Source: Candidatus Omnitrophota bacterium
Lineage (GTDB): Bacteria > Omnitrophota > Gorgyraeia > B26-G9
Direction: 5' to 3'
DNA: 64,000 bases
Assembly: GCA_018817585.1 (NCBI GenBank)
Contig: JAHITE010000123.1
Coordinates: forward strand, 1,280-65,279
Each line of letters starts with the position of its first letter. Positions within the stretch are counted from its first letter, which is position 1. The translations under genes and the position numbers were made by a program. The notes under the pieces were generated by a model. That model made no database searches and was not told the origin of the DNA. It was given only the letters and a program-made list of their open reading frames with translations. Shown here piece after piece: positions 971 through 41,402 of the stretch.

Positions 971-984
971 GATCTCAATTCCTA

Positions 985-15079: not shown

Positions 15080-15132
15080 TTTTACCCCGAATTGGCTTTA
15101 AAGTTAACTACAAGAATAATCACCTGTTAAAA

Positions 15133-16372: not shown

Positions 16373-16986
16373 TTTTTTACAAATACCTTTCTTTCTCTGC
16401 CGGTCAGCAGCCTATTTATATTCGCCTTGTGCTTAGCGACAATTATCACGCATAAAATTGAAGCCAGAATCACATAAGCATAAGGCGCTTTTAATCCCAG
16501 CATAAAAAACGGAATTAATATACTACAGACAATCGAGCCTAAAGATACATATTGGGTTATACCCACAACCAATAAAAAAACCAGCATACCCATTAAAACA
16601 GCAACCGGACTCAAACAAAGCAAAACCCCGGCGCTGGTGGCAACCCCTTTGCCGCCTTTAAACTGCAAAAACACATTAAAAACATGCCCGCAAACAACAG
16701 CAAGACCTAGCAATGTTTTGATTATCGGCAAGAATATTTCCACTCGCTGATCAATAAAGTTAGCAATAAACACAACCGCAATCACGCCCTTTAAGATATC
16801 AAATCCTAAAACCAGCAAACCCGGAAGTTTTCCTAAAACCCGGGCGGCATTAGTTGCTCCGGTATTACCGCTGCCGCATTCTCGGATATCTTCGCCCTTG
16901 AGCATTTTAACCAAAATATAAGCGGAAGAAACTGTTCCCAATAAATACGCCACGACAATACCTAATAAAACCAGAAAAATATTCAT
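16369..16986 (-). CDS. plsY: glycerol-3-phosphate acyltransferase PlsY
   Basis: GSGNTGATNAAR motif; multi-TM; about 200 aa. Confidence 0.9.
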   Translation of the reverse strand: MNIFLVLLGIVVAYLLGTVSSAYILVKMLKGEDIRECGSGNTGATNAARVLGKLPGLLVLGFDILKGVIAVVFIANFIDQRVEIFLPIIKTLLGLAVVCGHVFNVFLQFKGGKGVATSAGVLLCLSPVAVLMGMLVFLLVVGITQYVSLGSIVCSILIPFFMLGLKAPYAYVILASILCVIIVAKHKANINRLLTGRERKVFVKK

Positions 16987-18305
16987 CAGGAAATTCCTTT
17001 CTTTCTGACAATAATTTTAATTGGCGTGCCTTGAAAATTATAACTGCTTCTTAGCCTGCTTTCAATAAACCGTAAAAAAGGCGGTTTTACTAATTGCGGC
17101 TTATTAACAATCATCGCGAATACCGGAGGATTTACCCGCAGTTGAGTAATGTACTGAATTTTTAAATGCGGACTTTTCCCATCGCGGCGCTGATGTTCAT
17201 GAATCTTGTCCAGGGTTTCCGCTAAATGATTTTGTTTAATTTTCTTTTGTGAATTATTCCAGGCCTCATGCGCTAAAGCCAAAGCCGCATGCACATTTTT
17301 TCCGTTTTTCGCGGAACATAATATGCTAAAAGCAAAATTCATATAAAATGCTTGCGCGCTCAAAGTATGCTGACACTCCGCGATATCAAGTTTAACTAAA
17401 TCACATTTATTAATCGCGATAACACAGCATTTATCCTCTTCCTTGATCAAGCTTAAAATATGCAGATCATCCCGGCGTAAGCCGATTTGCGCGTCAATTA
17501 AAACAATGCAGACATCCGCGCGCTTAATCGCCTGAATTGTTCGGGAGCGGGAAAATAGATCAATAGCTTCTTTCGGCATTTTTTTTCTTTTGATTCCCGC
17601 GGTATCAATCATTAAATAATCATGCCCATCGATACTAACCCGCGTATCCACCGCATCCCGGGTTGTCCCCGGTACATCGGAAACAATAACTCTTTCTTCG
17701 TTTATCAGCGTATTAAAAAAAGAAGACTTGCCCACATTCGGTTTACCGATCAACGCGACTTTTAAAGCAGACTCTTCAACTTCTTTTTTGCTATCTCCTG
17801 GTTTTAAATGCTCCACAACCACATCCAGCAATTCATCAATATTTAAACCATGCAGCGCTGAAACAAACAACATTGGTTCAATCCCCAGCTCATAAAAATC
17901 AGTCAGCTGCGCGATTTTCGACATATCATCCACTTTATTCACAACCATAATAATTTTCCGATTGGCTTTTCTTAAAAAATTTAATATTCCCCAGTCTTCG
18001 GGAGTTAAACCAGCGGTTGAATCAACAATAAATAAAATCAGGCCAGCCTGCTCAATTCCTTTTTGCGCCTGCTTAATAATCTGATCAGACATTTGCGTTT
18101 TGGCTTCAAAATGAATTCCTCCGGTATCGACTAATTGAAATTCTTTTTTCCCCCAAGTCACAGTAGCATAAACCCGATCCCGCGTCACGCCGCTGGTTGG
18201 TTCAACAATCGACTGCCTTTTTCCCACCAGCCGGTTAAATAAGCATGACTTGCCGACATTCGGCCGCCCGGATATTGCCACCAGCATTTCTTTATCTATA
18301 TTCAT
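16986..18305 (-). CDS. der: ribosome biogenesis GTPase Der (EngA)
   Basis: Two tandem GTPase domains (GRPNVGKSCLFN and GKPNVGKSSFFN) plus a KH-like C-terminus; about 440 aa. Confidence 0.9.
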   Translation of the reverse strand: MNIDKEMLVAISGRPNVGKSCLFNRLVGKRQSIVEPTSGVTRDRVYATVTWGKKEFQLVDTGGIHFEAKTQMSDQIIKQAQKGIEQAGLILFIVDSTAGLTPEDWGILNFLRKANRKIIMVVNKVDDMSKIAQLTDFYELGIEPMLFVSALHGLNIDELLDVVVEHLKPGDSKKEVEESALKVALIGKPNVGKSSFFNTLINEERVIVSDVPGTTRDAVDTRVSIDGHDYLMIDTAGIKRKKMPKEAIDLFSRSRTIQAIKRADVCIVLIDAQIGLRRDDLHILSLIKEEDKCCVIAINKCDLVKLDIAECQHTLSAQAFYMNFAFSILCSAKNGKNVHAALALAHEAWNNSQKKIKQNHLAETLDKIHEHQRRDGKSPHLKIQYITQLRVNPPVFAMIVNKPQLVKPPFLRFIESRLRSSYNFQGTPIKIIVRKKGIS

Positions 18306-18339
18306 CTTTATCCCTGCTCTCTAAAAATCGTCGCGCAAA

Positions 18340-18891
18340 CTATTTGCCTGCACTGAGTAATCTATTGCTTTTGTAAATATAATCAAGACCCGAAGCAACG
18401 GTAATAACCGCCGCGACATCCCATAATAAAAAAGAATATGAGAATTGCAAAAGGATGCCAATCACAGTTGCCATTTGCGAAAAAGTCGTTAATTTTCCCC
18501 AGATGCTCGGCTCAATTTTCAAGTTACTGGTAGTCAGATGAACCAGCAATGAACCTAAAGCTAAAATCACATCCCGGGATATAAATAAAATCAGTACCCA
18601 GATCGGAAGTCTGATCTTAAAAGAGATACTATTGGCAAAAGCCAGCACAATAAAACTTGCGCTAAGCAAAAGTTTATCCGCCAGGGGATCTAAAAAAGAA
18701 CCTAACTTGGTTTGCATATTTCTCGTTCTGGCAATATATCCATCCAAAACATCACTAATCCCGGCAGCCAGGAATATTCCCACAGCCAAAAAACGCAAAT
18801 AATCTTTTTGCGGTGAGCAGTAAATAATGCTCCCCACAAAAAACGGGATTAACAGCACCCTGAATATTGAGATCCAATTAGCTAGATTCAT
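18340..18891 (-). CDS. pgsA: CDP-diacylglycerol--glycerol-3-phosphate 3-phosphatidyltransferase
   Basis: CDP-alcohol phosphatidyltransferase motif DVLDGYIAR...G...DPLADK; about 180 aa; membrane protein. Confidence 0.8.
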   Translation of the reverse strand: MNLANWISIFRVLLIPFFVGSIIYCSPQKDYLRFLAVGIFLAAGISDVLDGYIARTRNMQTKLGSFLDPLADKLLLSASFIVLAFANSISFKIRLPIWVLILFISRDVILALGSLLVHLTTSNLKIEPSIWGKLTTFSQMATVIGILLQFSYSFLLWDVAAVITVASGLDYIYKSNRLLSAGK

Positions 18892-18935
18892 AATTTTATA
18901 TTTAAGTTAGCTTTAATTTATACTTTTTTGAAAAA

Positions 18936-19475
18936 TTATTCAATTATCCGCATGCGATACGGCGGCCAATATACAAGCATTGCTTTGCCAATCAGATTTT
19001 TTCGCGGGACAAAGCCCCAATAACGTGAATCACGGCTATTGGCGCTATTATCGCCTAAAGCAAACAAGGCATCATCTGGAATCTCGATTTTCTGACCACC
19101 CTCACCATAATCACCGCGATTATAATAATAATTTTTTCTCAGATTTTTATCATCAATTATATTGTCATTAATAAAAATCCTGCCGTTTTTAATTTCTAAA
19201 GATTCATTACTCAGCCCGATTAATCTTTTAATAAAAGCCAGCTTAGTATCCTCAGGATATTTAAACACAATCACCTCGCCCCGTTTGGGATCGCGGAATT
19301 TGTAAATAAATTTATTAACCAGAATCCTATCGCCTTCAATCAATGTCGGGCGCATAGAACCCGTGGGGATTTTAAAAGCCTGCACTACAAAAGTTCTGAT
19401 AATCATTGCCAGGACAAAAGCAATCAACAAAGATTCCGCGTATTCTTTAATCACTGCCTTAACTTTATTATCCAT
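18936..19475 (-). CDS. lepB: signal peptidase I
   Basis: Catalytic Ser box GSMRPTL and box E GDNSANSRDSRYWGFV; about 180 aa. Confidence 0.9.
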   Translation of the reverse strand: MDNKVKAVIKEYAESLLIAFVLAMIIRTFVVQAFKIPTGSMRPTLIEGDRILVNKFIYKFRDPKRGEVIVFKYPEDTKLAFIKRLIGLSNESLEIKNGRIFINDNIIDDKNLRKNYYYNRGDYGEGGQKIEIPDDALFALGDNSANSRDSRYWGFVPRKNLIGKAMLVYWPPYRMRIIE

Positions 19476-19488
19476 TTAATCATCCTTT

Positions 19489-21285
19489 TTAATCATTGAT
19501 TTGTAATATAGCCCGAAAAGCTTCTTGAGGAATCTGGACCTTACCGAATTGCTTCATTCGCTTACGCCCCATTTTCTGCTTTTCCAAAAGCTTTCTTTTT
19601 CTGGAAATATCTCCACCATAGCATTTTGCCGTAACATTTTTCCCCATGGCTTTTACATTTTCCCGGGCAATAACTTTAGCGCCGATCGCCGCCTGAATCG
19701 CTACTTCATACAGCTGCCGGGGAATAAGCTCTCTAAGTTTCGATACAATTTGCCGGCCTTTATATTGCGCGTTATCGCGAAACACGAGAAATGACAAAGC
19801 ATCACAGGCTTCTCCATTAATCAGAATATCCAGCTTAACCAGCCGGGTTGCCCGATACCCGATAAATTCATAATCAAGCGAACCATATCCCCTGGTAATT
19901 GATTTTAGTTTATCAAAAAAATCAACAATCACTTCCCCTAAAGGAAATTCATAAGTAAGCATCACTCTTTGTTCATCAAGAAATTCTTTATTAACGTAAA
20001 TTCCCCGCTTAGATTGAGATAAAGACATGACCACACCCAAACAATCTTCCGGGACAATCATAAATGCTTTAATATAAGGTTCTTCAATATCCTCAATTTG
20101 TGTTGGTTCCGGAAATTTAGCCGGATTATCGATTTCAATCAGATCGCCGTTTGTTTTTAAAACACGATATACTACGCTGGGAGCTGTAGCAATTAAGTTA
20201 ATTTCAAATTCGCGCTCCAGTCTTTCCTGAACAATATCCATGTGCAAGAGCCCTAAAAATCCGCAGCGAAAGCCAAAACCCAGAGAAGGACTGCTTTCCT
20301 GCTCAAAAATAAAACCATAGTCAGTTAATTTAAGCTTATGCAAAGCATCCCGCAGATTATCAAAATCAACACTGCTGACTGGATATAATCCACAGAAAAC
20401 CAAAGGATGAACTTTTTTAAATCCCGGCAAAGGTTTTTCCGCCGGGTTCTTAAAATCAGTAACTGTATCACCAATTAAAACTTCCGCCGGATCCTTGATA
20501 TTACAAACAATATAGCCTACTTCACCACAGGATAATCTATCCACTTTTTCTGGCTTAGGATTAAAAATTCCGGTTTCCAACACTTCATATCTTTTACCTG
20601 AATCCATAAAGCTGACATGCATCTTTGGCTCAATAATCCCATTAACCACCCGCAAATAAACCACAACTCCCTTATAATTATCAAAAACCGAGTCAAAGAT
20701 TAAACACTGTAAAGGATTATCTTCGCTGCCGCCGGGATGCGGGATATCCCGCACAATCCTTTCCAGGATTTCCACAGCCCCTTTTCCATCTTTAGCGCTT
20801 GCCAGCAAAGCCTCTTCTTCAATGCATAGCACATCATGAATTTGATGCGCTACCACGTCCGGCTGCGCGTGCGGCAGATCAATTTTATTAATCACGGGAA
20901 TTATTTTTAAATTCTGCTCAGTGGCCAAATAAAAATTAGCCACTGTCTGGGCCTGAATTCCCTGGGCCGCGTCCACCAGTAATAAAGCGCCTTCACAAGC
21001 CGAAAGCGATTTAGCAACTTCATAACTAAAATCAACATGGCCAGGAGTATCAATAAGATTTAATTGATATCTTTGCCCGTCCTTTGAATTAAAATATATT
21101 CTTACCGCCGAAGCTTTGATCGTTATTCCCCGCTCCCGCTCAAGCTCCATATCATCGAGCATTTGATCATGAAACCCCCGCTTTTCAATTGATTGGGTTA
21201 TCTCCATTAAACGATCAGCCAAAGTTGATTTGCCATGGTCAATATGAGCAATAATACAAAAATTTCTAATGTTTTTTCTTTTCAT
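19489..21285 (-). CDS. lepA: elongation factor 4 (LepA)
   Basis: GTPase G1 [12 protein letters not shown]-like domains, LepA C-terminal domain; about 600 aa; directly upstream of lepB. Confidence 0.95.
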
Positions 21286-22661
21286 AATAATGCACAGCCA
21301 AAATCGATCAAGGCCTTTGTTCTTTTTAAGGTTTTTGATTCAGCGTAAATCCGCGCCACTGGTTCAGTTCCCGAAGAACGAATCAACAGCCAGCTTTCAT
21401 CACGCATAATAAATTTCGTACCGTCATATGTCTTAACTTCCACCACGTCCTGTCCTAAAATATTTTTCAGACGCGCTATCGGCTTAGTTACCTTTATTTT
21501 TAAATCGCGCCGCAAATAGAAAAATTTGCCAAATCGTTTTTGCATATCATTAATAATTTCAATTATCCCCTGTTTACGACAAGCCATTAATTCCAAAAGC
21601 AACAAACCGGAAAGCACCCCATCGCGTTCCGGCATATAGTTTTTAAACCCAATTCCCCCTGACTCTTCACCGCCGATCAGCACATCTTCTTTTATCATTT
21701 TCGCGGCGATATTTTTAAAGCCAACCGCTACTTCTTCCAACTCCAGATTGTAAAAAGCGGTAATTTTATCAACTAATGTAGTGGTGGTAATGCTTTTAAC
21801 AACCTTGCCTGTCATTTTTTTATTCTCCACAAAATGCAGCAAAATTAAACATATTGCCAGATGCGAACTAATCAGCTGCCCATCCGGACACATTGCCCCG
21901 ATTCGGTCCGCGTCACCATCTAAGGCAATAGCCAAATCATACGATTTAAGTTTCAAAGCTTTATCTAAAGCCAGCAAATTCTCGGCAATCGGCTCAGGAT
22001 TAACTCCGCCAAACAAAACATCATGATTTGCCCGAATCGTCTCCACTTGACAAAGGGAATTCTTTAAAACAGTTTCCACGATTCCAGCCCCGGCACCATG
22101 CATCGCGTCAACCAGAATTCGAAATTTATTTTTTCGAATAATCCCCATATCCAGATAATTTTTTAAAAAAACAATATAAGGCCTCAGCATATCAACATTC
22201 ATAATTTTTGCCGGCTTATCTGATTTCAGTCTGGGAACATTCAATCCGCCCCTGATTATCAGCTCGATTTCATTAGTCATGTCTTTAGACGCGGTTGCTC
22301 CGAATTCATCTTTAATTTTAAATCCGTTAAAATCATAGGGATTATGACTAGCAGTCAGGACAATCCCGCAAGCAAGCCGATTAGCGCGCACATACAAGCT
22401 GACTGCCTGAGTAGGAATCGGCTGCTCTGTTATAAAAACCGGCACACAATTTTGACTCAAAATATTTGCTGTTGCCTGAGCGAATTTATTTGATAAAAAA
22501 CGTTTATCATAGCCCAGAGCAATTCCCTTTTTATAACTTGACTGCTTATACTTTTTCAAGTACACAGACAAAGCCAGACTAATCCGCTGGACATTTTCAA
22601 AAGTAAAAGTATCCGCGATAATTCCCCGAAACCCGTCTGTTCCGAATTTAATTTCCTGCAT
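21282..22661 (-). CDS. phosphomannomutase/phosphoglucomutase family (alpha-D-phosphohexomutase)
   Basis: Active-site Ser loop [13 protein letters not shown] and metal-binding loop DGDADR; about 460 aa. Confidence 0.75.
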
Positions 22662-24671: not shown

Positions 24672-24707
24672 AAAAAGCTCCTCAACTGGAGGAGCTTTAA
24701 AAAAAAT
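24672..24707 (-). terminator. rho-independent terminator (perfect hairpin + T-run) downstream of small ORF 24735..24932
   Basis: Stem GCTCCTCC-AGTT-GGAGGAGC followed by TTTTTTGTTTG on the minus strand. Confidence 0.7.
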
Positions 24708-25204: not shown

Positions 25205-26179
25205 TTAGAATTTACAGGAAATGCCGAATTGGTGCAGATAATCCTCATTGCCTACCGCAGGATCCTGCCAATAAACAAACGTATAGTCAAAGTAATAACA
25301 TACAGGATGCGTTACAAAAAATTCCGCATACTGCCAGCCCAATCCCAAAGAGTAATATTTACTGGAATCCATGCTTGAATTAGGATTATGCGCTCCCAGC
25401 CTCAGAGAGAAATCGTCATTAAAATAATGTTCCATGCCCAAGCGTACATTTTGACTGTAATCAGATCCTCGATCCTGCGTATTACCAGTTAAATCATAAA
25501 TATCACAAGTTAATACAGTAGACTCATTCATATAATAAGCCAAACCCGGACGCCAGACTCTGATCAATCGACTATTTACCCCATGAATCGTAAAAGTCGG
25601 CTCATTAATATTTTCCACCAATAAACCCAAAGCCATTTTTTCCGACATATACCAGAGAAATCCCGCGTTTAAACTTATTGCTGTATCGCTGGAACTAATC
25701 CCGGGAATTTCTGATTTAAAATTAAAATAATTTAAAGAAACTCCCCAAGCCATATTTTCACTGGAAAAGAATTGACGGCCATAAGCAATACCTGGCTGCA
25801 TCAAAATTGTTTTACTGCGAGTTATTTCGTTTTCATAAGTACTGTTTTGATAATAGACCCCAACTGATCCGCTTTTAGAATCGGTCTGCCCCAGCTGCTT
25901 AGTATATACAATATAATCATCACTAATAAAATCACCAGTAATATAATCATTTCTCGCATTGATTGTTGCCGAAGCGCTAAATTCCTGGTCTTTTTGCCAG
26001 GCAAGACCAGCCGGATTCCAAGTACTGGCATTAGCATCATCAGCCAATGCGACAAATGCTCCGCCCATGGAAACCGGTCTGGCTCCGCCTTGAGCTGCCC
26101 AAACATTTTGATTACAAATAACCATTAACCCCATTATTAATAAAATAATAAAAAATCTTTTGCTTAAATATTTGCGCAT
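25205..26179 (-). CDS. outer-membrane beta-barrel protein, FadL/PorV-like
   Basis: Signal peptide; N-terminal motif RPVSMGGAFVALADDANASTWNPAGLA as in FadL/PorV-type barrels; alternating amphipathic strands; C-terminal Phe (..ISCKF). Stop/start abuts the peptidase gene. Confidence 0.55.
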   Translation of the reverse strand: MRKYLSKRFFIILLIMGLMVICNQNVWAAQGGARPVSMGGAFVALADDANASTWNPAGLAWQKDQEFSASATINARNDYITGDFISDDYIVYTKQLGQTDSKSGSVGVYYQNSTYENEITRSKTILMQPGIAYGRQFFSSENMAWGVSLNYFNFKSEIPGISSSDTAISLNAGFLWYMSEKMALGLLVENINEPTFTIHGVNSRLIRVWRPGLAYYMNESTVLTCDIYDLTGNTQDRGSDYSQNVRLGMEHYFNDDFSLRLGAHNPNSSMDSSKYYSLGLGWQYAEFFVTHPVCYYFDYTFVYWQDPAVGNEDYLHQFGISCKF

Positions 26180-28713
26180 TATAAATCACCTTTATTAAGC
26201 AGATCAGCTAATTTAACCAAAGAACTAAGACCATAGCGTACTGCTTTTTTAGCCGCGTCATTAGCTCTGATCATATCTGCCAGTTTTGGCCCAATTATAT
26301 AATAAACAGCCACAAATTCCCTGCCTCGATAATCAGCCATTAATTGTTTATCTCTAAATTTCCGCAGTAATACCACTTCCGGAGCTTGTTGGTCTCCATA
26401 GCAGGCTGTTGCCACAAAACAACTACTACTGCTGCTCGATGAATCAGCACTGCCTGAGCCTCCTAATACAGTTGTGCTGGCCCGGTTATTAGCAGCCACC
26501 GCTCCTTCATAAGTAGTCCCATTATAGCCAAAAGCAACATAATGATAAGTTGTATCAGCCTTAACATCAGTATGATTATAAGTTTCGGTTGTTCCTGGCG
26601 TAGCAGCCTTAGAAACCAGCAATGTACCGTCAGTCTCACTGGTAGGATAGGTTCCGTCCGTGCGATAGCGAATCATTACCTGAGTTAAATCCGCCCGGAT
26701 TGAATTTTTCCAGGATAAAGTCACCCAGCTGCTGTTGGCAAAAGCAATATTATTTGCTGTAAAATTTGTTGGTGATAAAAAAGCCGCGCTTAAAGGAGTT
26801 TGCGGATCGCCTAATAAATTAGTCGCGAAATAAGCCCAGCGCTCAGCATCATATGAGGCAACCAAGCCAATTGTTTCCTGCTTTGCCAATTGTAATGCTT
26901 TGCCGATATTTACATTTCCATCACGCACCACTGAGTCCCAGAATTCGCGATGAATCCGCTGCGATGCGCCATTAGTCCCTCCGGGATTATACCAGCCATA
27001 CCTTGAGTTGCCGATAAACGAAAATGCCCCATTAGCTTCTGTAGTAAAATGCTCTAAAATACAATCTGAAGCACCATAAATCCCGTCACTCTGCCGATTA
27101 TCAAAAGCTCCGGAATAACAGCCCTGAGTATAACCAAAAAAATACTCAGTGTTTGTTAAGCCATCAACATCAGCATTCGACATTGTCTTAGCAACTACAG
27201 TATTAGTAGCATGCCCCAAATGATTAATGACGTGAACACCCGCGTTAATAATTGCCACTAAACTGCTCGTAATCCAAGTAGCATCCTGATCATATAGATT
27301 ATTAAAACTAAAATAACCAGATTCTGACATACCGCTGGTGGAATAACCATTAGCGCTGGATCCATTACGAATTTCTTCCAAATATGGTTTTGCGTAAGTA
27401 TCTGTAACCAATTCACCCGCCATGCAAGCCCGGGTAAGATAATCCGCGTTAGAATTTTCATAAGCAATTGTTTTTTTTACAAAATTAGCCAACTCAGCCG
27501 TGGAATCAACCGGAGCCCGGCCAATATAGACCTCAGCAGTTAAATCAATACTCCCGCCGCCAGGCCCATCACCGATCTCTCCATATATCCCATTATTATT
27601 AAAATCAAAATCCCCATCAAAACAAGCATAATACATATCACAGGGAATATTATTATCAGGATCTAAATGTGCCGGGTAATCATTATTTACCTTGCCATAA
27701 AATCCTCTATAGGGAATTATCGGCGCTGCTTCGGTTTCTCCAGTAGCAATGCCACCGCCGTCAGCATCACCGACTAAAAGCACATATTGAGTTAAATTAT
27801 CTGTACAATAAGCAATAATAAAATCGCGCAGATTTCCCGCGTTATCCGATTTAGCAGTATAATTCGCATAAACCCAAGTTGTGTCAAATATTTCAGTAGA
27901 TATTCCCTTAGATTCTTTATGAGTTTTAAGATCATTCAGATTATTTACACCAACATAGTTTTTAAATCCTAAGCTCGTAATAATTAAATAATCGACCGTA
28001 GCTAAAGGAGCTGCCAATGAGGTTATAGCATTTTGACTATACGTACTAATATCTTCCGGATTATCTACAAAATCATTTACAGCCTTTTGATCAGCAGCAA
28101 TACCGCGATAAAACTTATTATTCGTACTCAGCGTCGCCAGCTCATCGGATAAGACAATATTAAGATTAAGATTATCATAATAAGCTAATTTACCAGTTGC
28201 CGGAATATATTCCACGGGAAAAAGATTAATAATCAGGATTTTATAACCACGCATTTCCTGCGTGGAAACAACTTTGTAGACAGATTCAGGATAAGCAGTA
28301 TTACGGCTATAGATTTCAGGATTAGGCAAAGTGGGATTAATCGGTCCCGCATAATCTGTTCGCGCTGGGGCTTGTGCCGGCTCAACAAAATAAGTACCGT
28401 AAACATATTTTTTACTGGTCCAGCCTAGAGTTACATTGCTGACTTTTTTCCCTTGAGGAATCAAATATTTTATGGTTTTAATTGGCAGCAAAGGTTCACC
28501 TGGTGCGGCAAAATTTTCCAAACCTTTAATTTTAACCCGATGATAATTATTTATTTTAGTAACTTCTACTGAATCAAGCTGTGTGCTAATCAGATTATTT
28601 TTAATTTTTAAAGAAAAACTCTGTTCTTCGCCAGCAGAATAAGCATTAAAATTAAATAAAAAAACAAAAACGCAAACACAGAAAAATATCCAGGTTGTTT
28701 TACTGCTGTACAT
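26179..28713 (-). CDS. secreted C25 (gingipain-like, clan CD) cysteine peptidase with FN3-like domain, poly-Ser linker and a conserved Cys-containing C-terminal domain
   Basis: Signal peptide; His-Gly/Cys dyad context INHLGHATNT ... GYTQGCYSGAFDN; FN3-like WxxLxW...Y..Y segment; SGSADSSSSSSS linker; C-terminal CFVATACYG...LLRKFRD...YY..GP..A domain. Confidence 0.6.
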   Translation of the reverse strand: MYSSKTTWIFFCVCVFVFLFNFNAYSAGEEQSFSLKIKNNLISTQLDSVEVTKINNYHRVKIKGLENFAAPGEPLLPIKTIKYLIPQGKKVSNVTLGWTSKKYVYGTYFVEPAQAPARTDYAGPINPTLPNPEIYSRNTAYPESVYKVVSTQEMRGYKILIINLFPVEYIPATGKLAYYDNLNLNIVLSDELATLSTNNKFYRGIAADQKAVNDFVDNPEDISTYSQNAITSLAAPLATVDYLIITSLGFKNYVGVNNLNDLKTHKESKGISTEIFDTTWVYANYTAKSDNAGNLRDFIIAYCTDNLTQYVLLVGDADGGGIATGETEAAPIIPYRGFYGKVNNDYPAHLDPDNNIPCDMYYACFDGDFDFNNNGIYGEIGDGPGGGSIDLTAEVYIGRAPVDSTAELANFVKKTIAYENSNADYLTRACMAGELVTDTYAKPYLEEIRNGSSANGYSTSGMSESGYFSFNNLYDQDATWITSSLVAIINAGVHVINHLGHATNTVVAKTMSNADVDGLTNTEYFFGYTQGCYSGAFDNRQSDGIYGASDCILEHFTTEANGAFSFIGNSRYGWYNPGGTNGASQRIHREFWDSVVRDGNVNIGKALQLAKQETIGLVASYDAERWAYFATNLLGDPQTPLSAAFLSPTNFTANNIAFANSSWVTLSWKNSIRADLTQVMIRYRTDGTYPTSETDGTLLVSKAATPGTTETYNHTDVKADTTYHYVAFGYNGTTYEGAVAANNRASTTVLGGSGSADSSSSSSSCFVATACYGDQQAPEVVLLRKFRDKQLMADYRGREFVAVYYIIGPKLADMIRANDAAKKAVRYGLSSLVKLADLLNKGDL

Positions 28714-30220
28714 CTGCTTTATCCTCCCACTCCCGCCATTTATAAACAGCCTGATCCAAAGCTTTTTTCATTGCCTGATCCCGCTTTTCTTTAATATCCA
28801 TTTCCCCTGTATTCTGATTAACAATATGCGGCGTAATAAAAACAACTATTTCTTTTTTCACATTCGACGTGCCCTGGCTTTTAAAAAACATTCCCAAAAC
28901 AGGAATACTGCCGAGTATCGGCACTTTTGATTGCGTCTGCGATACAGTATCTTTGATTAATCCGCCCAAAACAATTGTTTTTCCGTCCCGAACAATAACT
29001 GTGGTATCTGCCTGGGTTGTGTCCACTGCCAAGGAATTATTAACCTCAGCCACCCTTCTGGCGGAACTGACTTCCGGATGGATTTTAAGCGTAATAAAAC
29101 CATCATCACTGATTTTCGGAGTAACTGTAAGCTTTACGCCCACATCAATAAATTTAGTTTCTTCGGTCTGGGTATTTGAATCTTTATCAATATAAGTTAC
29201 TAAATATGGTTCCGAAGCACCCACCAGAATATTCGCCTCATTATTATTCATAACCGTAATCCGCGGATTAGAAAGGATATTTGTATCTGTCATGCTTTCC
29301 AAAGCCTGAATCGTGACTTGATATTGATCAGCGCTCAGAGTTCCGATTCTTAAAGTTCCGCCATTACTCACGCTCACGGGTAAAACAGCAGACACATTGA
29401 TCGTATCTCCGTCCGTATCATTAAGATATTCCCAATTTACACCCAGCCCCTTACTTTTGTCAACTGAAATCTCTAAGATTTTGGCTTCAATCAATACCTG
29501 CTTTGATCTTTGATCCCAGTTTTTTATCAACATATCAATTTTAGCAATTGTCTCAGCAATCACCCGAATAACTAAACTATTTGTTCTTTCATCAATAAAG
29601 ATTTCCCCTTCCTGCTTGGGAATTAATTCCGTAAGCTTGGCCATCATTTCCTTAGCATCAGCATAATTTAAGTTATAAACCTTGGTAATCATCTTATGAT
29701 CAAGCGCCGCGATTACTTCTTCAGCCTCAGCAATATTAGCCACTGTATCCGTAATAATAACCTGATTAGCCATTGAATTTATTTCTACTCTGCCGCGGGG
29801 AGATTTTGTGGAATTAAGCACTTGTCTTAAATCCGCGACTTTGACATTGCTTAAGAAAAATACCCGGCTGACTAATTTTTCAGTCTGTTCCTGCTGCAAA
29901 ACATCCTGCTGCGTCAAAACCCGGATAATTCCCTTGTCTTCAACAAATAAAAAATTATTCGCGGTTAAAATAGCATCCAACGCCTGGATAACCGTAATAT
30001 CATTAAGCTTGGCAGTTACCCTCCCCTGCACATTCCGGCTGGCAACAATATTAACCTGCCCCTGTTCAGCCAGCAATCTTAAGACATCAAGAATACTCAT
30101 ATTCTTAACATCCAGATCGATTTTAACTGTATTCATATCCGCGGCATACAAATGTTCAAAAGAACACAGCAGGCTTAATAGCGTTAATAATGTGACTAAA
30201 CATAAAAATTTATTTTTCAT
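28700..30220 (-). CDS. secretin (GspD/PilQ family), compact form
   Basis: Signal peptide; N-domains plus secretin domain with C-terminal hallmark KKEIVVFITPHIV; about 500 aa; overlaps the peptidase gene by 14 nt. Confidence 0.8.
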   Translation of the reverse strand: MKNKFLCLVTLLTLLSLLCSFEHLYAADMNTVKIDLDVKNMSILDVLRLLAEQGQVNIVASRNVQGRVTAKLNDITVIQALDAILTANNFLFVEDKGIIRVLTQQDVLQQEQTEKLVSRVFFLSNVKVADLRQVLNSTKSPRGRVEINSMANQVIITDTVANIAEAEEVIAALDHKMITKVYNLNYADAKEMMAKLTELIPKQEGEIFIDERTNSLVIRVIAETIAKIDMLIKNWDQRSKQVLIEAKILEISVDKSKGLGVNWEYLNDTDGDTINVSAVLPVSVSNGGTLRIGTLSADQYQVTIQALESMTDTNILSNPRITVMNNNEANILVGASEPYLVTYIDKDSNTQTEETKFIDVGVKLTVTPKISDDGFITLKIHPEVSSARRVAEVNNSLAVDTTQADTTVIVRDGKTIVLGGLIKDTVSQTQSKVPILGSIPVLGMFFKSQGTSNVKKEIVVFITPHIVNQNTGEMDIKEKRDQAMKKALDQAVYKWREWEDKADVQQ

Positions 30221-30723
30221 AGTCTTAACTCGAATATTTCATCATCTTTTTTCAGAATAACTCTGTCTGATTTAACTTCCTTAACAATAAAACCCTCAAC
30301 ATTTTCATTGCCATAACAGTAAAAAGAGCGATCATTAGTCACATTGCTGATTATTGCCTGAGGGCCTTGCGCTCCAGAAACAATACCCAAAAGCTGTAAT
30401 TGCCCGAGGCTTAAATCCGCTTGTTCGGTTTTTACCGCTAAATCTTTTTTTTGTCCGGAATTAATTCCAGATTGCGTGATAAATAATTTTCTGCGCGTAA
30501 GAATCCGTTCATAATATTTTTCTGATTTTTTTACTAGCTCTAAACTCGCTATTGCCGGCATTGTTTTTTTACCCATTTTAGTCTCAATATCCATATTCTG
30601 GACACTAAAAAATAATATGCTGAAATAAATCAGGATTAATCCCGCGAAAAACATTAATCCTATATTAACACGATTTATATATTTATCTTTAAAAATAATT
30701 CTATTCAATAAATCATTTGCCAT
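30217..30723 (-). CDS. PilP/GspC-like inner-membrane secretin-interacting protein
   Basis: N-terminal TM helix; C-terminal beta-domain ...LQLLGIVSG..PQAIISNV..GFIVKEVKSDRVILKKDDEIFELRL resembling PilP/GspC HR domain; 4-nt overlap with the secretin gene. Confidence 0.45.
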   Translation of the reverse strand: MANDLLNRIIFKDKYINRVNIGLMFFAGLILIYFSILFFSVQNMDIETKMGKKTMPAIASLELVKKSEKYYERILTRRKLFITQSGINSGQKKDLAVKTEQADLSLGQLQLLGIVSGAQGPQAIISNVTNDRSFYCYGNENVEGFIVKEVKSDRVILKKDDEIFELRL

Positions 30724-30732
30724 AATAAAAAA

Positions 30733-31254
30733 TTAGTCCTTCGCGAGAATAGCACTTAACAGTAACTGCACTTTTAAAGGCTCGCCTTCTGCCTGAGCAT
30801 TAATTTGCGTGTGTTTAATTGAAAACATATATGGCGATTTGTCTAAAGCATAAAAAAAACTGCCCAAATTTTTTAATTCACCTTCTGTTTCCAATTTAAA
30901 ATCAAATTCATTATAGATACCATCTTCTTTTAGCGGAAATGGCTTTACATTGGTCACATTAAGTCCTGCCATTCCGGCTTTACTTTTAACATCCTGTAAA
31001 ATATCTGTTAGCGCTGGCTTGCCGGAATTGGCCTGAAATTTTTGAACAAAATCATTATATTCTTTTTCAATCACTGTTTTGCCATTAAGGATCTGATTTA
31101 TTTGACTTAAACCTGTTTCCGCGGCCTGAATCTTTGAATTAATTATAGTATACCGAGGATAAGCAAACTGGAAAAAGAAAAAATACAAGCCAATGCCTAA
31201 AATAAGACATAAGTATAATGACATTAGAAATAATTCTCTGCGCATTAAGCTCAT
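30733..31254 (-). CDS. PilO/GspM-like bitopic membrane protein
   Basis: N-terminal TM helix, coiled-coil segment, C-terminal ferredoxin-like region; size and position match PilO upstream of PilP-PilQ. Confidence 0.4.
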   Translation of the reverse strand: MSLMRRELFLMSLYLCLILGIGLYFFFFQFAYPRYTIINSKIQAAETGLSQINQILNGKTVIEKEYNDFVQKFQANSGKPALTDILQDVKSKAGMAGLNVTNVKPFPLKEDGIYNEFDFKLETEGELKNLGSFFYALDKSPYMFSIKHTQINAQAEGEPLKVQLLLSAILAKD

Positions 31255-31889
31255 AAATAATTATTTTCTCGTGTTTCCTGGCTGATAGTTGTCGATGATC
31301 CATGCCCGGGAAAAACCAATGTTTGCGGATCCAACCCCTTTATCAGCTTCTGATTAATTGAATTAAGCAAGGCTTCAAAAGATCCGCCCGGTAAATCAGT
31401 TCGCCCGACTCCATGACAAAACAAAGTATCTCCGCTGAATAAGACATCCCTTACTTGCAGACAAATACCGCCGCGGGTATGTCCGGGAGTATGCAATACT
31501 TTAAGCTGTAAATCACCAATAGAAATAATATCATTGTCTTTTAAAATCTTTATTTTTGGCTTAAATTCCTGGCCGGTCCCAAAGCAGGCTGAAAGATTTT
31601 TTTCGCTGTTTACCAGCATTTCCGCGTCATCCGCGTGAATATAAACCGGCAAATCAAAATGATTCAAACATCCAATATGGTCATAATGCCCATGCGTTAA
31701 AACCACTGCTTTAAGCTTAAGTTTTTCCTGATTAACTACTGCCTTAATTTTAACTATATCCGCGCCCGGATCAATAATTACAGCATTAAGGGTATTACTG
31801 CAACCCAAAACATAACAATTAGTCTGCAAAGGACCAACAATGATTGTTCTGACGATTATTCCTTTATCCATGTTTTGACTTTTTCCCAA
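31251..31889 (-). CDS. MBL-fold metallo-hydrolase (glyoxalase II-like)
   Basis: HxHxDH motif VLTHGHYDHIGC; about 210 aa. Confidence 0.75.
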   Translation of the reverse strand: MGKSQNMDKGIIVRTIIVGPLQTNCYVLGCSNTLNAVIIDPGADIVKIKAVVNQEKLKLKAVVLTHGHYDHIGCLNHFDLPVYIHADDAEMLVNSEKNLSACFGTGQEFKPKIKILKDNDIISIGDLQLKVLHTPGHTRGGICLQVRDVLFSGDTLFCHGVGRTDLPGGSFEALLNSINQKLIKGLDPQTLVFPGHGSSTTISQETRENNYL

Positions 31890-32344
31890 GGATAATCCGC
31901 TTCCAGTTGTTTTTCAATATTATTTAATTGCTGTTTTATTCGAATAGTTTGAAATTTAGACAAGTTTATGTTTTTCAAATCACTAAGCAACGGTTTAATT
32001 ATATCTGAAACAGTTGCATACTCCTGCTTATATTCGTCTAAAGCTAATCCCTGCATTAGTTTAATATACTTAGAAGCATTATGTACCATGCGGTAAGTCC
32101 ACAGCTTATTTTCCTGAAATGAGGTTTGGGCTTCTTCCAAAGAAGATACTGCCAATAAATGATATTGATTGTAAAGTTCTTGACTGGATTTAGGGGCAGC
32201 AATCGTCTCTTCGTACTCAAGCACTGGGGTATTTGGTTCAGACAACTGCTTATCATCAGGGCCGCCGATTTCTACTCCGGCGACAAAACCGCATAAAAAT
32301 AATGCAGTTATAATAATACTGATCAAATATAAATATTTTTTCAT
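31856..32344 (-). CDS. hypothetical periplasmic/anchored protein (signal peptide), first gene of the secretin operon
   Basis: N-terminal hydrophobic signal/anchor; no conserved domain recognised. Confidence 0.35.
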   Translation of the reverse strand: MKKYLYLISIIITALFLCGFVAGVEIGGPDDKQLSEPNTPVLEYEETIAAPKSSQELYNQYHLLAVSSLEEAQTSFQENKLWTYRMVHNASKYIKLMQGLALDEYKQEYATVSDIIKPLLSDLKNINLSKFQTIRIKQQLNNIEKQLEADYPWEKVKTWIKE

Positions 32345-32418
32345 CGTCCCTGACCAAGCCTTTGCGCTAGATATTCAGCAATCCTTGCTTTCCTTATCTT
32401 AGTTTGAGCTTTAGGAAT

Positions 32419-32447
32419 ATTATAACTAATTCTTTTTATTTCCACAA
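32419..32447 (-). promoter_or_regulatory. near-consensus sigma-70-type promoter driving the secretin/peptidase operon
   Basis: On the minus strand: TTGTGG (-35, plus 32442-32447), 17-nt spacer, TATAAT (-10, plus 32419-32424), about 70 nt upstream of the ATG at 32344. Confidence 0.5.
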
Positions 32448-32458
32448 GTCTTTTTTTA

Positions 32459-32488
32459 GTGTCAGATACTGCAGTGTCAGATACTGCA
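32459..32488. repeat. perfect 2 x 15-bp tandem direct repeat GTGTCAGATACTGCA immediately upstream of the -35; candidate operator
   Basis: Read directly from the sequence: two identical adjacent 15-mers between the acyP stop (32491) and the promoter. Confidence 0.7.
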
Positions 32489-32490
32489 CC

Positions 32491-32891: not shown

Positions 32892-33836
32892 ATGATAAAG
32901 AAAAATATATTTTCTATTGGTTTAGACAGTCAAACAATCGAATCGCTTTATGCTTATTTAGCTGATGGTTTTGATTTTATTCTTATTGAGACAGCCGAAG
33001 ACTTGATGAGTAAAATTAAAAAATACAAAGTAAGTTTAATGTTTTTAAACAATCATTTACCTGACTTTGATAACTGCCAAGAGCTGTGCATTGCTCTGCG
33101 TTCTCAGCCAAACACAGAAACAGTGCCTTTAATTGTCCTGACCAATGACCAGCCGGAATCACTTCAAAAAGAAAAAATCTCGCTGTTTCAAGCCGGGTTG
33201 ATTGACGGTTATTTTTCCATGCCCTTGAATGCTGAAGAAGTAACCGCGTACTCAAATGTTTTTCTACAGCGCCAGGCTTTACAAGAAGAACTGGAAGAAA
33301 CAAATAAACTGCTGTCCCAAATTTCTACCACTGATGAATTAATGCAAATTTATAACCGCCGCTATTTAATCCATCGCTTAGAAGATGAGCTGCTCAGAAT
33401 AAAACGCTATAATTATCCGCTTTCGGCAATTATGATTGATTTAGATTATTTTAAAAAGATAAATGACCAGTATGGGCACGCCCAGGGGGACAAAGCACTC
33501 AAAGGATTAGCGCTTTTTTTAAAGCAAAACATTCGGGCAATGGATATTCTTTGCCGCTATGGAGGCGAAGAAATTGTGATTCTCCTGCCCCACACCAATG
33601 CCAAAGGCGCTTCGCTGACTGCGGAACGCCTTCGTAGCCACATCAAGGCGCATAATTTTGGAGATAGCGACAATCCGCTCTGCTTTACTGTAAGTATTGG
33701 CCTGGTTACTTTTGACAGACAAGATGACCTCAATGTCGACAAAGTTATCAGCGCTCTTGATATCCAGCTTTATAAAGCCAAAAATAGCGGCCGAAATAAG
33801 GTTTGTGAAGTTCTATACAAAGACACTATCTTGTAA
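32892..33836 (+). CDS. diguanylate cyclase (GGDEF) with N-terminal phosphorylation-incompetent pseudo-receiver domain
   Basis: GGDEF domain with RYGGEEI active-site variant, I-site RAMD five residues upstream, substrate-binding region around KINDQYGH; the REC-like N-terminus has Asn where the phospho-acceptor Asp should be (LMFLNNHLPDFD). Confidence 0.75.
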   Translation: MIKKNIFSIGLDSQTIESLYAYLADGFDFILIETAEDLMSKIKKYKVSLMFLNNHLPDFDNCQELCIALRSQPNTETVPLIVLTNDQPESLQKEKISLFQAGLIDGYFSMPLNAEEVTAYSNVFLQRQALQEELEETNKLLSQISTTDELMQIYNRRYLIHRLEDELLRIKRYNYPLSAIMIDLDYFKKINDQYGHAQGDKALKGLALFLKQNIRAMDILCRYGGEEIVILLPHTNAKGASLTAERLRSHIKAHNFGDSDNPLCFTVSIGLVTFDRQDDLNVDKVISALDIQLYKAKNSGRNKVCEVLYKDTIL

Positions 33837-37551: not shown

Positions 37552-40500
37552 TTAGCCCAACTGGACATCGATCCTGCTGATCTTACCGTCTCTGAGCATT
37601 TGCGCGTATTCACTATCCAGCACACTGCTTTCCACATTTACCCGATTGCCATTATCCAAAGCAATCCGCATTGATAAAGGCTTTACTCCGCCTTTACCAT
37701 AAGTATTTTTATTCTTAGGATTATGATAAATAACTAAAGTCGAATTTAAGAATTTAAAAGCATATGAGTTTTTCGGCAAATCAATAATCACATGCTTATC
37801 CTTGCCCAAGCAATACTCAAAAACTGCTTCTTCCTGAGTAAACATCCACGCTGGCAAAGCTGGCTCAAACCGCGCGATCAAGCCCTTGTTTTCATTTAAG
37901 CGAAAAGGATTTTGCCCAACATTCATCCACAACCACATGGTAATAAACTCAGCAGTAGAACCGCTTAGGCGGGCCACAAATCCATTACCGTGCAGGGTTT
38001 TATCAGGAAAAGCACTGCTAACCAGAAATGAGGAGTTTTCCAAAATACTTCGGCCGTATCTTTCCGCCGGCTGGAATGGTATCAGCACGTTTTTAAACTC
38101 AGTAAAAAACTCTTCATATAAACCATTGCGTAATAATTCCAAGATGAACTTATATTCCATATGCAGCCAGATTGACTCATTTTCCAACCATCCGGGAGTA
38201 AATACTCTGGCGCGACCAATATCTTTAGTCACTTTTTCCAAAGAAGCATTTACTTTAAACATTTTCAATGGTTTATCATACAAAGCGCTCTTTCGGGTAT
38301 TAGCATAAAGCGCTTTTACTTTTTTAGCATCCTGAACGCATCTTAAAGCATGAACCTGCGCTTCTAAAAACAAGGGCAAGGGTTTTTGTTTAAACTGTTT
38401 TGGCTGCACGCAGAAAAGACCATCTTTGCTTTTTTTAAATCCATCGCGGGTTTTAATTTTATTAAATTTAGTTACTTCATTTATAAAATAAGTATGATAT
38501 AAACCGGTTTTTTTATCTTTAGAATTAGCCAGGCTTATTTCCAGCTTTGCTGACATCTTCATTAAAATTGCTTTAATTTCTTTAATTTTCAAATCAACTA
38601 ATTTGCCATTAATTCCTCGGGAGATTTGTTTACGGTAAGTTTCTTTAAGCGCGTAAGACTTATCCCAATAAAGCATTTCCCGACTCTTGGTCTTGCTCTT
38701 AAGATAATTATTAACTAATCCCACAAGCCCTTGAATAAAATCATCCAATTCTTTCGGAACACTGACCAGTAAATCAGATTCGAGTTTCAGCTGCTCTATA
38801 CAGTTTAAAATAAAATCAATCAACCGCTTAAGCTCAAAGGTTTCGCATACCGATGAACCAAACAATCCGGGCAGACCATTTAAAGCATCATACCAACCCG
38901 GCTTATTCGCTTCCATTTCAATTCCACAGCCAAAAGCATCCAAAGATGCCATTTTATTAGTCAGCAGACAAAGCATTTTACTCAGTAATGTGGTTTTATA
39001 AATACTGCCGTTTCCCTGCTCAGTTCTAATTGCCCAATCATCACTGTTTTTCGCTCGGCAAAATTCAGATTCATCTTTAACGCCGTCTAAACCAACCGCG
39101 TGATACTGCCGAACCATATCATTATAAAGAATATATTTTTCATCACGGTTTTTAACTTTCACACAGTTATTAAAATAAACAAATTGTTTTTTATTCAACA
39201 GAATATCACTGAGTCTTTCCGGATAAATTGCCAGATAAGACTCCAAAGCATCCAGATTATAAGTCCAATGATCAACCCAGAATCCTTCACCGTGTTCCGC
39301 GTTTTGCTGACGTTTGCAGCTGGAAAGCAATTCAGTAAGAAATTTTTCTTTGCTTACCTTTAAATTAATCCCATTAATCTCTAAAAATATAAATAAATCG
39401 CCCAAAGCAAATTGTTTTTTAATAAACTTTTCTACTCTTAGCGCGTCGCTTTTCTTTTCCAGCACTACTTTGATATTTTTAAATGACTGATTGTCTTTAA
39501 GCTTAAATCTATCACCATAAACAACCAGAGGATTAAACCCATCCAGCTGAATAAGATTAAAAAAAACAATTATATTGGCATCCTGAACCATAGGATTAAA
39601 CCAAACATCATCCCGCCGATTCTGATTAACATCCCGGTAATTTCCATTTCCCTGCGACAAATATGTCGGCTCTATTAAGAAATTATTATAATCCCGCTCC
39701 AGATCCCCATGCTTACGGGAATAAACATGATAAACATGTGATTTCTCCTTACCCTCCAGAGTTATTGCCAATCCGCCTCTTAAAACATTGTCCAGATATG
39801 TTTGCTTACAATAAAGATCATATGTCGAATTTCCGCTCTTAGTAAAAATATTACTCTGAACTTTGGCGACTTCTTGCTTATATTCACAAGCTTTATTGAT
39901 TAAAAAATCATTATTATTTGCTTTAGCGATCAATGCCTGCAATTGCGCTTCTTCCCGGGCATAGCCGATCAAGCTGGTAATTGTCACTTCTTCCTGCGGC
40001 TTTAAAACCAGATCAATATAACTAAACGCCGAAGGAGTTTTGCTGGAAGTTATCTGCTCCTGTGGTACTTTAAAGTTTTTTTGACAGAAAAAACGCGGAT
40101 ACTGAAAGGTTTTATTTTGACCAAATACCACATCCGGATCAACAATAAACTCAGTTTTCTTATTAGAATTATTAGTATTGGCGTAACTATAATAGAAATT
40201 TCCACCTTTTATATACAGGACTTGCGGACTGTCCGAAGGATCAACCGCCAATTTATAAAACGGTGCTTTAAATTTTGTCACAAACTCTACCTGCATCCAG
40301 GCTTCAATTGTCCTGCCAATATCTTTTAAAAAACGGTCATTGGCGCCGCAAGGAATCACCTGCGCTAATCCATCGATAATTTCCAAAGATTTAGGCTTAT
40401 TTGAAATATTTTTTATGGTTAAATTACGCACCAGACAGCCCAGAGGCTCATTGGACATAGTAAAATATTTTGCTTCGATTTTTAAACCAATTGTCCGATT

Positions 40501-41051: not shown

Positions 41052-41402
41052 TCATGGATTCTGCACTTTTAAAAAATTTTCTAAGTACGCTTTGTCCTGT
41101 TTATCCATATAAGTAACTTCAACACCCGCCAGATAAGTTGTTTTCCCCGAAACAGGATCAATGCTTTTTTCTCCAATCCATCTAACATTGCCTTCTGCTA
41201 CTGTCATATCCGGATTATTCGGTACATCAATATTAAGTTCAAGATTATCATTTAAATTTAAGCTTGAAGACGAAGTAATCTTTACGCCCTCCAAACTAAT
41301 ATCCTGAGTAAAAGCTTCATGTTTTTGTTCCGGCTGGCCTTCAAAGTTAAATCTAATAAAAACCGATGATAAAGCTCTTTGGGCTTGGCGTCTTTCTTTC
41401 AT
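41052..41402 (-). CDS. PilZ-domain protein (c-di-GMP effector)
   Basis: RRQAQR (RxxxR) and DISLEG (DxSxxG) motifs; 116 aa. Confidence 0.55.
   Translation of the reverse strand: MKERRQAQRALSSVFIRFNFEGQPEQKHEAFTQDISLEGVKITSSSSLNLNDNLELNIDVPNNPDMTVAEGNVRWIGEKSIDPVSGKTTYLAGVEVTYMDKQDKAYLENFLKVQNP

Follow-up and report, generated by a model that had tools for sequence, protein, structure and literature searches.

A type II secretion-like secretin module shares an Omnitrophota operon with a CFI-tagged C25 peptidase and a PorV-like barrel

Why a secretin, a C25 cysteine peptidase and a PorV-like outer-membrane barrel should be encoded in one operon is the question raised by a 64,000-nucleotide (nt) stretch of the genome of a Candidatus Omnitrophota bacterium (contig JAHITE010000123.1; the whole stretch is called the window below). 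Omnitrophota are abundant, uncultured and very small and are thought to be attached to or to prey on other cells, a lifestyle in which their surface proteins are central. A preliminary description of the locus proposed a minimal secretin pathway dedicated to the export and anchoring of a single protease. We prefer a different reading, to which we give about an even chance: the operon would encode an outer sub-assembly derived from a type II secretion system (T2SS), co-expressed with a C25 zymogen that carries a C-terminal CFI box, is exported through the secretin and then stays surface-bound by means of its tag and/or the barrel; another locus would supply the energy and a pseudopilus. The locus is most likely a clade-specific derivative of the compact T2SS/type IV pilus-like operon of Omnitrophota, and its peptidase is most likely one tagged cargo among many.

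The operon, its peptidase and its barrel

The operon and its genes, in the order of transcription, are as follows (lengths in amino acids, aa).

25205-32344, minus strand: seven-gene operon, from the coordinates of the open reading frames (ORFs)
31856-32344, minus strand: first gene, 162 aa, N-terminal hydrophobic segment followed by helices
31251-31889, minus strand: metallo-β-lactamase (MBL)-fold hydrolase, GloB-like, 212 aa, no signal peptide
30733-31254, minus strand: PilO/GspM-like bitopic inner-membrane protein, 173 aa (Pfam)
30217-30723, minus strand: GspC HR-domain/PilP-like protein, 168 aa (Pfam T2SSC)
28700-30220, minus strand: compact secretin, 506 aa, with signal peptide, N0/STN domain, two Secretin_N domains and secretin core
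26179-28713, minus strand: C25 cysteine peptidase precursor, 844 aa, with signal peptide, pro-domain, catalytic domain, Ig-like domain, Ser/Gly linker and CFI box
25205-26179, minus strand: PorV-like/FadL-superfamily outer-membrane β-barrel, 324 aa, with signal peptide and N-terminal 'DDA..NPAGL' hatch motif

Successive genes overlap by 34, 4, 4, 14 and 1 nt, and a single junction is a gap, of 9 nt. The preliminary description had placed all seven genes correctly, but its range of 4-14 nt for the junctions was too narrow, although the packing is equally tight. The 14-nt overlap joins the secretin and C25 genes, and the 1-nt overlap the C25 and barrel genes. A scan of the genome collection seeded with the C25 orthologs returned 80 loci, and the block is syntenic in about 10 Omnitrophota species. 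Eight relatives (L002-L009) keep the seven genes in the same order, with identities of 50-73% for the C25 protein and 69-94% for the secretin. Because the seven genes are syntenic in these relatives, the block is not a chance arrangement, and the neighbourhood conservation that the preliminary description proposed to check includes the C25/barrel pair. As a separate observation, the GspC-like gene was not detected in L008 (the HY810 metagenome-assembled genome), where about 170 nt (8280-8446) lie between the PilO-like and secretin ORFs, and the barrel of this locus is split across two reading frames (12475-13223); both could reflect decay of the module or assembly error.

The C25 precursor is divided into the following parts. 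Confidence of the structure models is given as the predicted local distance difference test (pLDDT).

28111-28629, minus strand: gingipain-type pro-domain, residues 29-201 (Propeptide_C25, 38.6 bits)
26794-27990, minus strand: C25 catalytic domain, residues 242-640 (Peptidase_C25 PF01364, 192.8 bits)
26470-26769, minus strand: Ig/FN3-like β-sandwich, residues 649-748 (strands of the model, pLDDT ~78-88; weak Pur_ac_phosph_N match)
26215-26421, minus strand: CFI-box-CTERM tag, residues 765-833 (NF041770, 79.4 bits; cut-off 40)

With a catalytic domain above its cut-off and a conserved His/Cys dyad, the protein is by sequence a member of peptidase family C25. Residues H501 and C532 are invariant across 15 orthologs; in an alignment with gingipain R (1cvr), they fall on the catalytic residues in GH and AC. 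The pro-domain matches that of Kgp (5mun) in a profile comparison (E = 7e-6) and was modeled with a pLDDT of 80-90. The full-length model has a catalytic core of low confidence (mean pLDDT 62.5); only its pro-domain, its Ig-like domain and its helical CFI box are reliable. The CFI box, a feature absent from the preliminary description, has its CF[IV]AT motif at the invariant Cys765 after a Ser-rich linker, as seen in motif scans and alignments, and is followed by predicted helices (766-840) with no trailing transmembrane (TM) helix. Neither a type IX secretion system (T9SS) C-terminal domain nor a match to Por_Secre_tail or any other T9SS family was found in the protein with Pfam and NCBIfam, and the NCBIfam model of the T9SS sortase PorU (NF033707) scored 48.7 bits against a cut-off of 420, with the match confined to the shared C25 core.

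The barrel belongs to the FadL superfamily, as a divergent, PorV-like member. PorV was the sole solved structure matched by the sequence profile of its family (E = 6e-10), and a Foldseek search with its structure model (pLDDT 82.7) placed FadL at the top (E = 1.4e-10) and gave PorV the highest sequence identity (18%). The preliminary call of a PorV/FadL-like barrel therefore holds in profile and structure, but the scores for the NCBIfam PorV/PorQ family (62.4 bits; cut-off 90) and for Toluene_X (18 bits; cut-off 29.7) are below threshold. Orthologs of the barrel are confined to this clade, on contigs that agree in length with those of the secretin and C25 orthologs. A role as a widely conserved partner of C25 peptidases was rejected, as the next homologs (~30% identity) have neither C25 nor secretin genes nearby. 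Their neighbors are cytochromes or the genes of an outer-membrane biogenesis cluster (Skp/LpxD).

The secretin triad and its relatives

The PilO-like, GspC-like and secretin genes form a triad upstream of the C25 gene. The PilO-like protein passed the cut-offs of both PilO (29.4 bits; cut-off 22) and T2SSM_b (22.4 bits; cut-off 21.7). The preliminary description had called the second protein PilP-like, and it is indeed an HR-domain protein, but it scores as GspC (Pfam T2SSC, 32.9 bits; cut-off 27; residues 75-163) and is anchored by an N-terminal TM helix, with no PDZ domain and no lipobox cysteine; the NCBIfam GspC models match it weakly. PilM and PilN had no match among the operon proteins in Pfam, NCBIfam or profile comparisons. 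The secretin is recognized by Pfam Secretin (165.4 bits) and, in two stretches, by Secretin_N (80.5 bits), with a weak STN/N0 match. It lies equidistant from solved GspD and PilQ structures and below the cut-offs of the NCBIfam equivalogs for GspD (TIGR02517; 269 bits, cut-off 351) and PilQ (263 bits; cut-off 284), and the structure and NCBIfam scores are so nearly tied that they favor neither subtype. The earlier calls of MBL hydrolase, PilO-like protein, secretin and C25 peptidase were all borne out by profile hidden Markov model (HMM) searches, with Pfam/NCBIfam scores above cut-off.

The compact secretin is a member of a large Omnitrophota family, and the contexts sampled are of three types: the complete operon, the polysaccharide cluster and the C25 operon. 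In the complete operons (L170 and L171), the gene order is GspG, PilMN-like, a ~170-aa gene, a ~160-190-aa gene, secretin, GspE and GspF, with a GspC+PDZ gene upstream and exosortase/PEP-CTERM genes downstream. In L169, L170 and L171, a local HMM of the PilO-like protein matches the second gene upstream of the secretin, and one of the GspC-like protein matches the gene directly upstream of it in the same loci, as well as their longer GspC+PDZ proteins. The order of the homologous PilO-like, GspC-like and secretin genes in these operons is thus that of the window, and in L171 a 2084-aa CFI-tagged adhesin is encoded just upstream. Unlike the window operon, they add GspG, PilMN-like, GspE, GspF and GspC+PDZ genes and exosortase/PEP-CTERM genes, and they have no C25 and no barrel gene. 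They resemble the T2SS-like loci that have been reported near giant genes in Omnitrophota (bioRxiv 10.1101/2023.11.21.568195). As a point of its own, the exosortase EpsH/EpsI and several PEP-CTERM proteins are encoded directly 3' of the T2SS-like operon (L170 7219-21527, L171 7127-18781) and constitute a second C-terminal sorting system beside a T2SS-type machine.

By this comparison, the triad of the window is a retained fragment of such a complete operon, with C25 and barrel genes now standing in the place of GspE and GspF. This origin argues against a minimal self-sufficient machine, that is, a secretin pathway that exports and anchors one protease with neither ATPase nor pseudopilus, which is what the preliminary description had envisaged. 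The retained PilO-like and GspC-like genes are the parts that normally link the secretin to the inner-membrane platform, and in L010, described below, a peptidase of this type is encoded within a complete T2SS. The lack of an ATPase gene in 64 kb has no bearing on the remainder of the genome. To our knowledge, every characterized secretin system couples to an ATPase-driven machine of the inner membrane. A self-sufficient pathway would account for the lack of ATPase and pilin genes in the window and within 10 kb in the eight relatives, and secretins of this type at the head of polysaccharide clusters have no T2SS partners, as if the secretin were deployable as a modular pore. Taken together, we consider such a pathway very unlikely.

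In the polysaccharide clusters (L167 8971-20467; L168 10001-21491; L172 10001-13607), a Wzx/Wzy cluster begins with the secretin gene. These secretins are paralogs with 47-50% identity to that of the window, and two come from genomes in which the C25 operon is present as well. The secretin gene is followed by genes for a GNVR/Wzz co-polymerase, a BY-kinase-like ATPase, a flippase, glycosyltransferases and Wzy, and no Wza/OPX gene was called in the three loci. Slime secretion requiring secretins has been reported (PMC12475490).

The CFI box, C25 peptidases and T2SS genes in other loci

The acylphosphatase and M16 peptidase genes that flank the operon are also syntenic across the clade (L002-L009). 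Gene order within the clade cannot separate coupling from descent, so that evidence from outside the clade is required. In L010, from an unclassified bacterium, one strand encodes GspD, GspE, a toxin-antitoxin insert, GspF, GspG, a pseudopilin, GspI, GspJ, GspK, a protein consisting of the pro-domain only, a 942-aa C25 protein with a CFI box, a PilM/GspL fusion and GspM. Because a CFI-tagged C25 peptidase sits in the complete T2SS operon of this unrelated lineage, the secretin module and the C25 peptidase of the window are plausibly functionally linked. In L081, from an uncultured bacterium, the genes for a TolB-like propeller, a C25 peptidase, two CFI-box proteins and GspC are co-directional. 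Across the C25 loci, T2SS genes were found in three of the four lineages with a CFI box nearby and in 2 of the 66 loci without one (Fisher p = 7e-4); in both of the latter, the T2SS-like gene found within 10 kb is on the other strand, at a distance of several kb from C25. The wiring of C25 and barrel to the secretin that the preliminary description suggested is thus plausible for the peptidase, as seen in L010 and L081, whereas the barrel/C25 pair is found in one clade only.

Some features of these loci deserve mention beside this linkage. The insert of L010 is a nucleotidyltransferase/HEPN toxin-antitoxin pair (4272-5304) between gspE and gspF, and the gene for the C25 pro-domain alone (9917-10585) lies directly upstream of the C25 gene. 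In Methanothrix loci (L011, L013 and L014), second pro-domain-like matches occur ~2.3 kb upstream of the C25 genes. Such C25 pro-domains could be trans-acting inhibitors or chaperones. In L032, from another Omnitrophota lineage, an untagged 968-aa C25 protein (10367-13273) is encoded between giant ORFs of 3403 aa (20-10231) and 2928 aa (13455-22241), both ending in a CFI box, an arrangement which may connect the Omnitrophota "giant genes" with the CFI tag.

It can be argued that the operon implies no coupling at all: the triad would belong to a machine encoded elsewhere, be it a type IV pilus, a T2SS or a polysaccharide exporter, and the C25 and barrel genes would be co-inherited neighbors. 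This is consistent with the synteny of the housekeeping flanks, the unrelated MBL gene within the operon, the unrelated contexts of the barrel homologs outside the clade, the use of the compact secretin paralogs in other contexts and the finding that some 66 of 70 C25 loci have no secretion genes nearby. However, the overlaps of 14 nt between the secretin and C25 genes and of 1 nt between the C25 and barrel genes speak against mere co-inheritance, C25, CFI box and T2SS genes are linked again, independently, in L010, in L081 and probably in L157, and barrel orthologs were recovered only on contigs that agree in length with those of the secretin and C25 orthologs of the operon. We therefore regard this explanation as quite unlikely.

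In the canonical CFI tag, a Gly-rich linker leads to an invariant Cys and a ~70-residue helical domain, which is followed by a TM helix and a basic tail; the CFI boxes of Omnitrophota and L010 have neither the TM helix nor the basic tail. An exhaustive search with the 90-residue tag of the window found 20,391 representative clusters that match at E ≤ 1e-3. Upstream of the tag, 42 long members contain GDSL lipases, PKD domains, VesB-like Ig domains, propellers and similar domains, with C25 peptidases accounting for 2 of the 42, and the tag is restricted, among the 120 best C25 homologs, to the Omnitrophota orthologs, the L010 protein and one other protein. Four CFI proteins (P0323, P0324, P0332 and P0337) have two CFI-box stretches each, the best-scoring one in mid-protein instead of at the C terminus; they may represent tagged modules in tandem, or else gene calls that are fused or read through. 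No publication on the CFI-box family was found in the literature searched.

We also carried out the converse test, with 80 metagenome loci seeded on the CFI box. T2SS genes were present within 10 kb in seven of them and immediately adjacent in five. In three of the five the genes are co-directional: a CFI protein, GspC and GspD in L120, a 3304-aa CFI protein followed by GspF-G-H in L149, and a CFI protein followed by GspL in L157. In the other two (L112 and L159) the CFI and T2SS genes are convergent and abutting. Taken over the whole analysis, at least ten loci besides L010 have T2SS genes beside those of CFI-tagged proteins. Since the set includes archaeal-looking loci, such as L105 (with the tetraether lipid synthase Tes) and L091 (with HdrA2), the share of bacterial loci with T2SS genes exceeds 7/80. 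The CFI proteins of L105 and L091 are canonical, with TM helix and basic tail, and the tag is therefore not confined to two-membrane bacteria.

The CFI box is thus a generic C-terminal tag of extracytoplasmic proteins that is repeatedly found beside T2SS genes in bacteria. It is because the tag is generic, being shared by more than 20,000 clusters, that the peptidase is most likely a tagged cargo, and the idea of a pathway "for a single protease" is not supported. The repeated proximity also renders testable the hypothesis of the CFI box as a surface-sorting tag linked to the T2SS; this link between the family and the T2SS is the most valuable by-product of the analysis.

It has been shown that in the T9SS the barrel PorV anchors the C25-family sortase PorU at the surface, where PorU removes the C-terminal sorting domain (PMC5562754). 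By analogy, the C25 protein of the window could be a PorU-like sorting enzyme docked on the PorV-like barrel, which would cleave and possibly transfer the CFI tags of secretin-exported proteins, giant adhesins included. The C25/barrel pair does parallel the PorU:PorV sub-complex, untagged C25 genes directly adjoin those of CFI-tagged proteins in L032 and L081, the C25 gene of L010 lies between gspK and gspL, where components of the machine are usually encoded, and the invariant Cys that starts the CFI box after a Gly/Ser-rich linker resembles a processing site. However, neither a C25 catalytic domain nor a barrel homolog was found in any of the 80 CFI-seeded loci, even in sensitive searches with 19 diverse C25 queries, and on this adjacency test we downgraded the dedicated CFI-box sortase to an alternative. 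The window C25 protein itself bears the tag and a zymogen pro-domain and is thus cargo-like, and the tag family, with C25 peptidases making up 2 of its 42 long members, far exceeds this C25 subfamily. In addition, CFI boxes also occur in archaeal loci, where there is no outer membrane, the PorU model scored far below its cut-off, and the barrel is absent from the L010 locus. A sortase role is therefore unlikely in our judgment, and we are likewise doubtful of a T9SS-style attachment step, with a C25 transpeptidase and a barrel that process CFI tags, on a T2SS-type secretin in Omnitrophota. If true, such an attachment step would possibly decorate ultra-small, host-dependent cells with giant adhesins and hydrolases, and it would give a function to the tag of more than 20,000 protein clusters.

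Export, retention and the surroundings of the operon

Under the reading that we prefer, in which the operon provides a T2SS-derived outer sub-assembly for a tagged cargo, the peptidase would be exported by Sec, as its signal peptide predicts, and, by homology, would fold as a zymogen with its gingipain-type pro-domain. It would then cross the outer membrane via the secretin, as operon linkage and the association of CFI box and T2SS elsewhere suggest, driven by an ATPase and a pseudopilus that are probably encoded elsewhere in the genome. Finally, the CFI-box-CTERM tag and/or the PorV-like barrel may hold the peptidase at the surface, by analogy with VesB and PorV-PorU. The locus would then exemplify a T2SS-type secretin module rewired in one clade for a tagged cysteine protease.

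Several observations weigh against this reading. Genes for GspE, GspF, GspL and the pseudopilins GspG-K were found neither in the 64-kb window nor within 10 kb in L002-L009. Given that the housekeeping flanks are syntenic as well, the gene order alone could reflect shared ancestry, and the presence of an apparently unrelated cytoplasmic MBL hydrolase means that membership in the operon is no guarantee of a shared function. The secretins of the polysaccharide clusters have no T2SS partner in their loci, and, because such paralogs head these clusters, Omnitrophota secretins are not tied to protein export. The Omnitrophota-type CFI box has no TM helix and no basic tail, and with them lacks an evident means of anchoring. 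The enrichment of T2SS genes around the CFI-seeded loci is not significant relative to a small empirical control of C25 loci (p = 0.09-0.14).

The closest known parallel is the tagged protease VesB of Vibrio cholerae, which is secreted by the T2SS and becomes surface-bound through a GlyGly-CTERM and rhombosortase (PMC6219818). Both cases share a secretin with GspC HR-domain and GspM/PilO-type partners, a Sec-exported protease zymogen with a C-terminal tag after a Gly/Ser-rich linker, a cargo gene linked to secretion genes and an expected retention at the surface. The window operon differs in having only three machine genes, with GspE, F, G-K and L absent from the window, in its ~70-residue CFI box without TM helix in place of a short tripartite signal, in the lack of any rhombosortase-type enzyme seen at the operon and in the additional PorV-like barrel. 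Other T2SS hydrolase cargo that is encoded together with the machine and kept at the surface includes PulA in Klebsiella and SslE in Escherichia coli.

The T9SS analogy drawn in the preliminary description is not supported beyond distant homology. As in PorU-PorV, the gene for a C25-family enzyme lies beside that for a 14-strand PorV-like barrel of the FadL superfamily. Here, however, the host belongs to the Omnitrophota, the conduit is a secretin instead of SprA/Sov, the peptidase has a gingipain-type pro-domain and no T9SS C-terminal domain, and the operon proteins are far below the cut-offs of the NCBIfam PorU and PorV models. No T9SS families (SprA/Sov, PorKLMN) were found among the window ORFs. 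The gingipains (RgpB and Kgp, family C25) share the pro-domain, the His/Cys dyad and the subsequent Ig-like domain with the window peptidase; unlike it, they belong to Bacteroidota and end in a T9SS C-terminal domain in place of a CFI box, and the sequence similarity is very low (profile E = 4e-8). The pair of PorV-like barrel and C25 peptidase outside the T9SS phyla bears on the evolutionary origin of the PorU-PorV module.

The order of PilO-like protein, small HR-domain protein and secretin is also that of pilO-pilP-pilQ, and the PilQ score of the secretin is nearly equal to its GspD score. Unlike PilMNOPQ, the operon has no PilM/PilN, the "PilP" position is taken by a TM-anchored GspC match instead of a lipoprotein, no pilin or PilB/C is nearby, and protease and barrel genes lie 3' of the secretin. 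As the preliminary description had noted, pilin, PilM/PilN, pseudopilin and ATPase genes are missing from the window: Pfam scans found none among its other large ORFs, and tblastn with the full T2SS protein set returned nothing beyond the operon. The remaining sizeable ORFs encode housekeeping proteins or large proteins that match no secretion-system family in Pfam. In the literature searched, no paper describes this combination, as had been assumed, and the Omnitrophota papers do not mention C25, gingipain, secretin or PorV.

The two genes at the start of the operon differ in their distribution. The 162-aa gene is kept in L002-L009 and absent from the more distant L169, and relatives of its product were undetectable outside the operon of the clade. 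The protein had no matches in Pfam/NCBIfam and no profile match to any solved structure. We rejected it as a pilotin or lipoprotein, as Cys18 is not conserved, and as a PilN/PilO-like partner, as the hhalign probability against the PilO-like profile is 0.6%. The MBL hydrolase (Lactamase_B, 101.9 bits; GSH_gloB, 89.5 bits, under its cut-off) is encoded ahead of the triad in L169 as well.

One further element was located downstream of the operon.

24674-24698, minus strand: terminator-like hairpin 3' of the barrel gene, with a 10-bp stem and a T-run (consensus scan only)

The hairpin is probably the end of the operon. Neither a family-supported ORF nor an Rfam match was found between the hairpin and the barrel gene, the Rfam scan of the operon region matched no families, and promoter-like sites in this region were not more frequent than in shuffled sequence.

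The surroundings of the operon contain further large ORFs. An 807-aa ORF with an RHS-repeat match (3539-5962, minus) and an adjacent 1425-aa ORF with a signal-like segment at the N terminus, visible YD/RHS-like repeats and no Pfam match (6038-10315, minus) both lack a CFI box, and a 1115-aa ORF (37552-40899) has no Pfam match and no obvious signal peptide. Small stand-alone PilZ-domain proteins are encoded at 14657-15079 and 41052-41402, and an ORF divergent from the operon (32892-33836, read by eye) has a receiver-like N terminus and a diguanylate-cyclase-type 'GGEEI' motif, which together hint at cyclic di-GMP signaling around the operon. The GC skew of the window is negative in all 2-kb bins and nearly all genes are on the minus strand, a pattern that fits a single replichore with a strong gene-strand bias. 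Near the window end, a YhaV-type toxin gene (61072-61605) and a truncated ORF of the phage integrase family (63573-63947) suggest the boundary of a mobile element.

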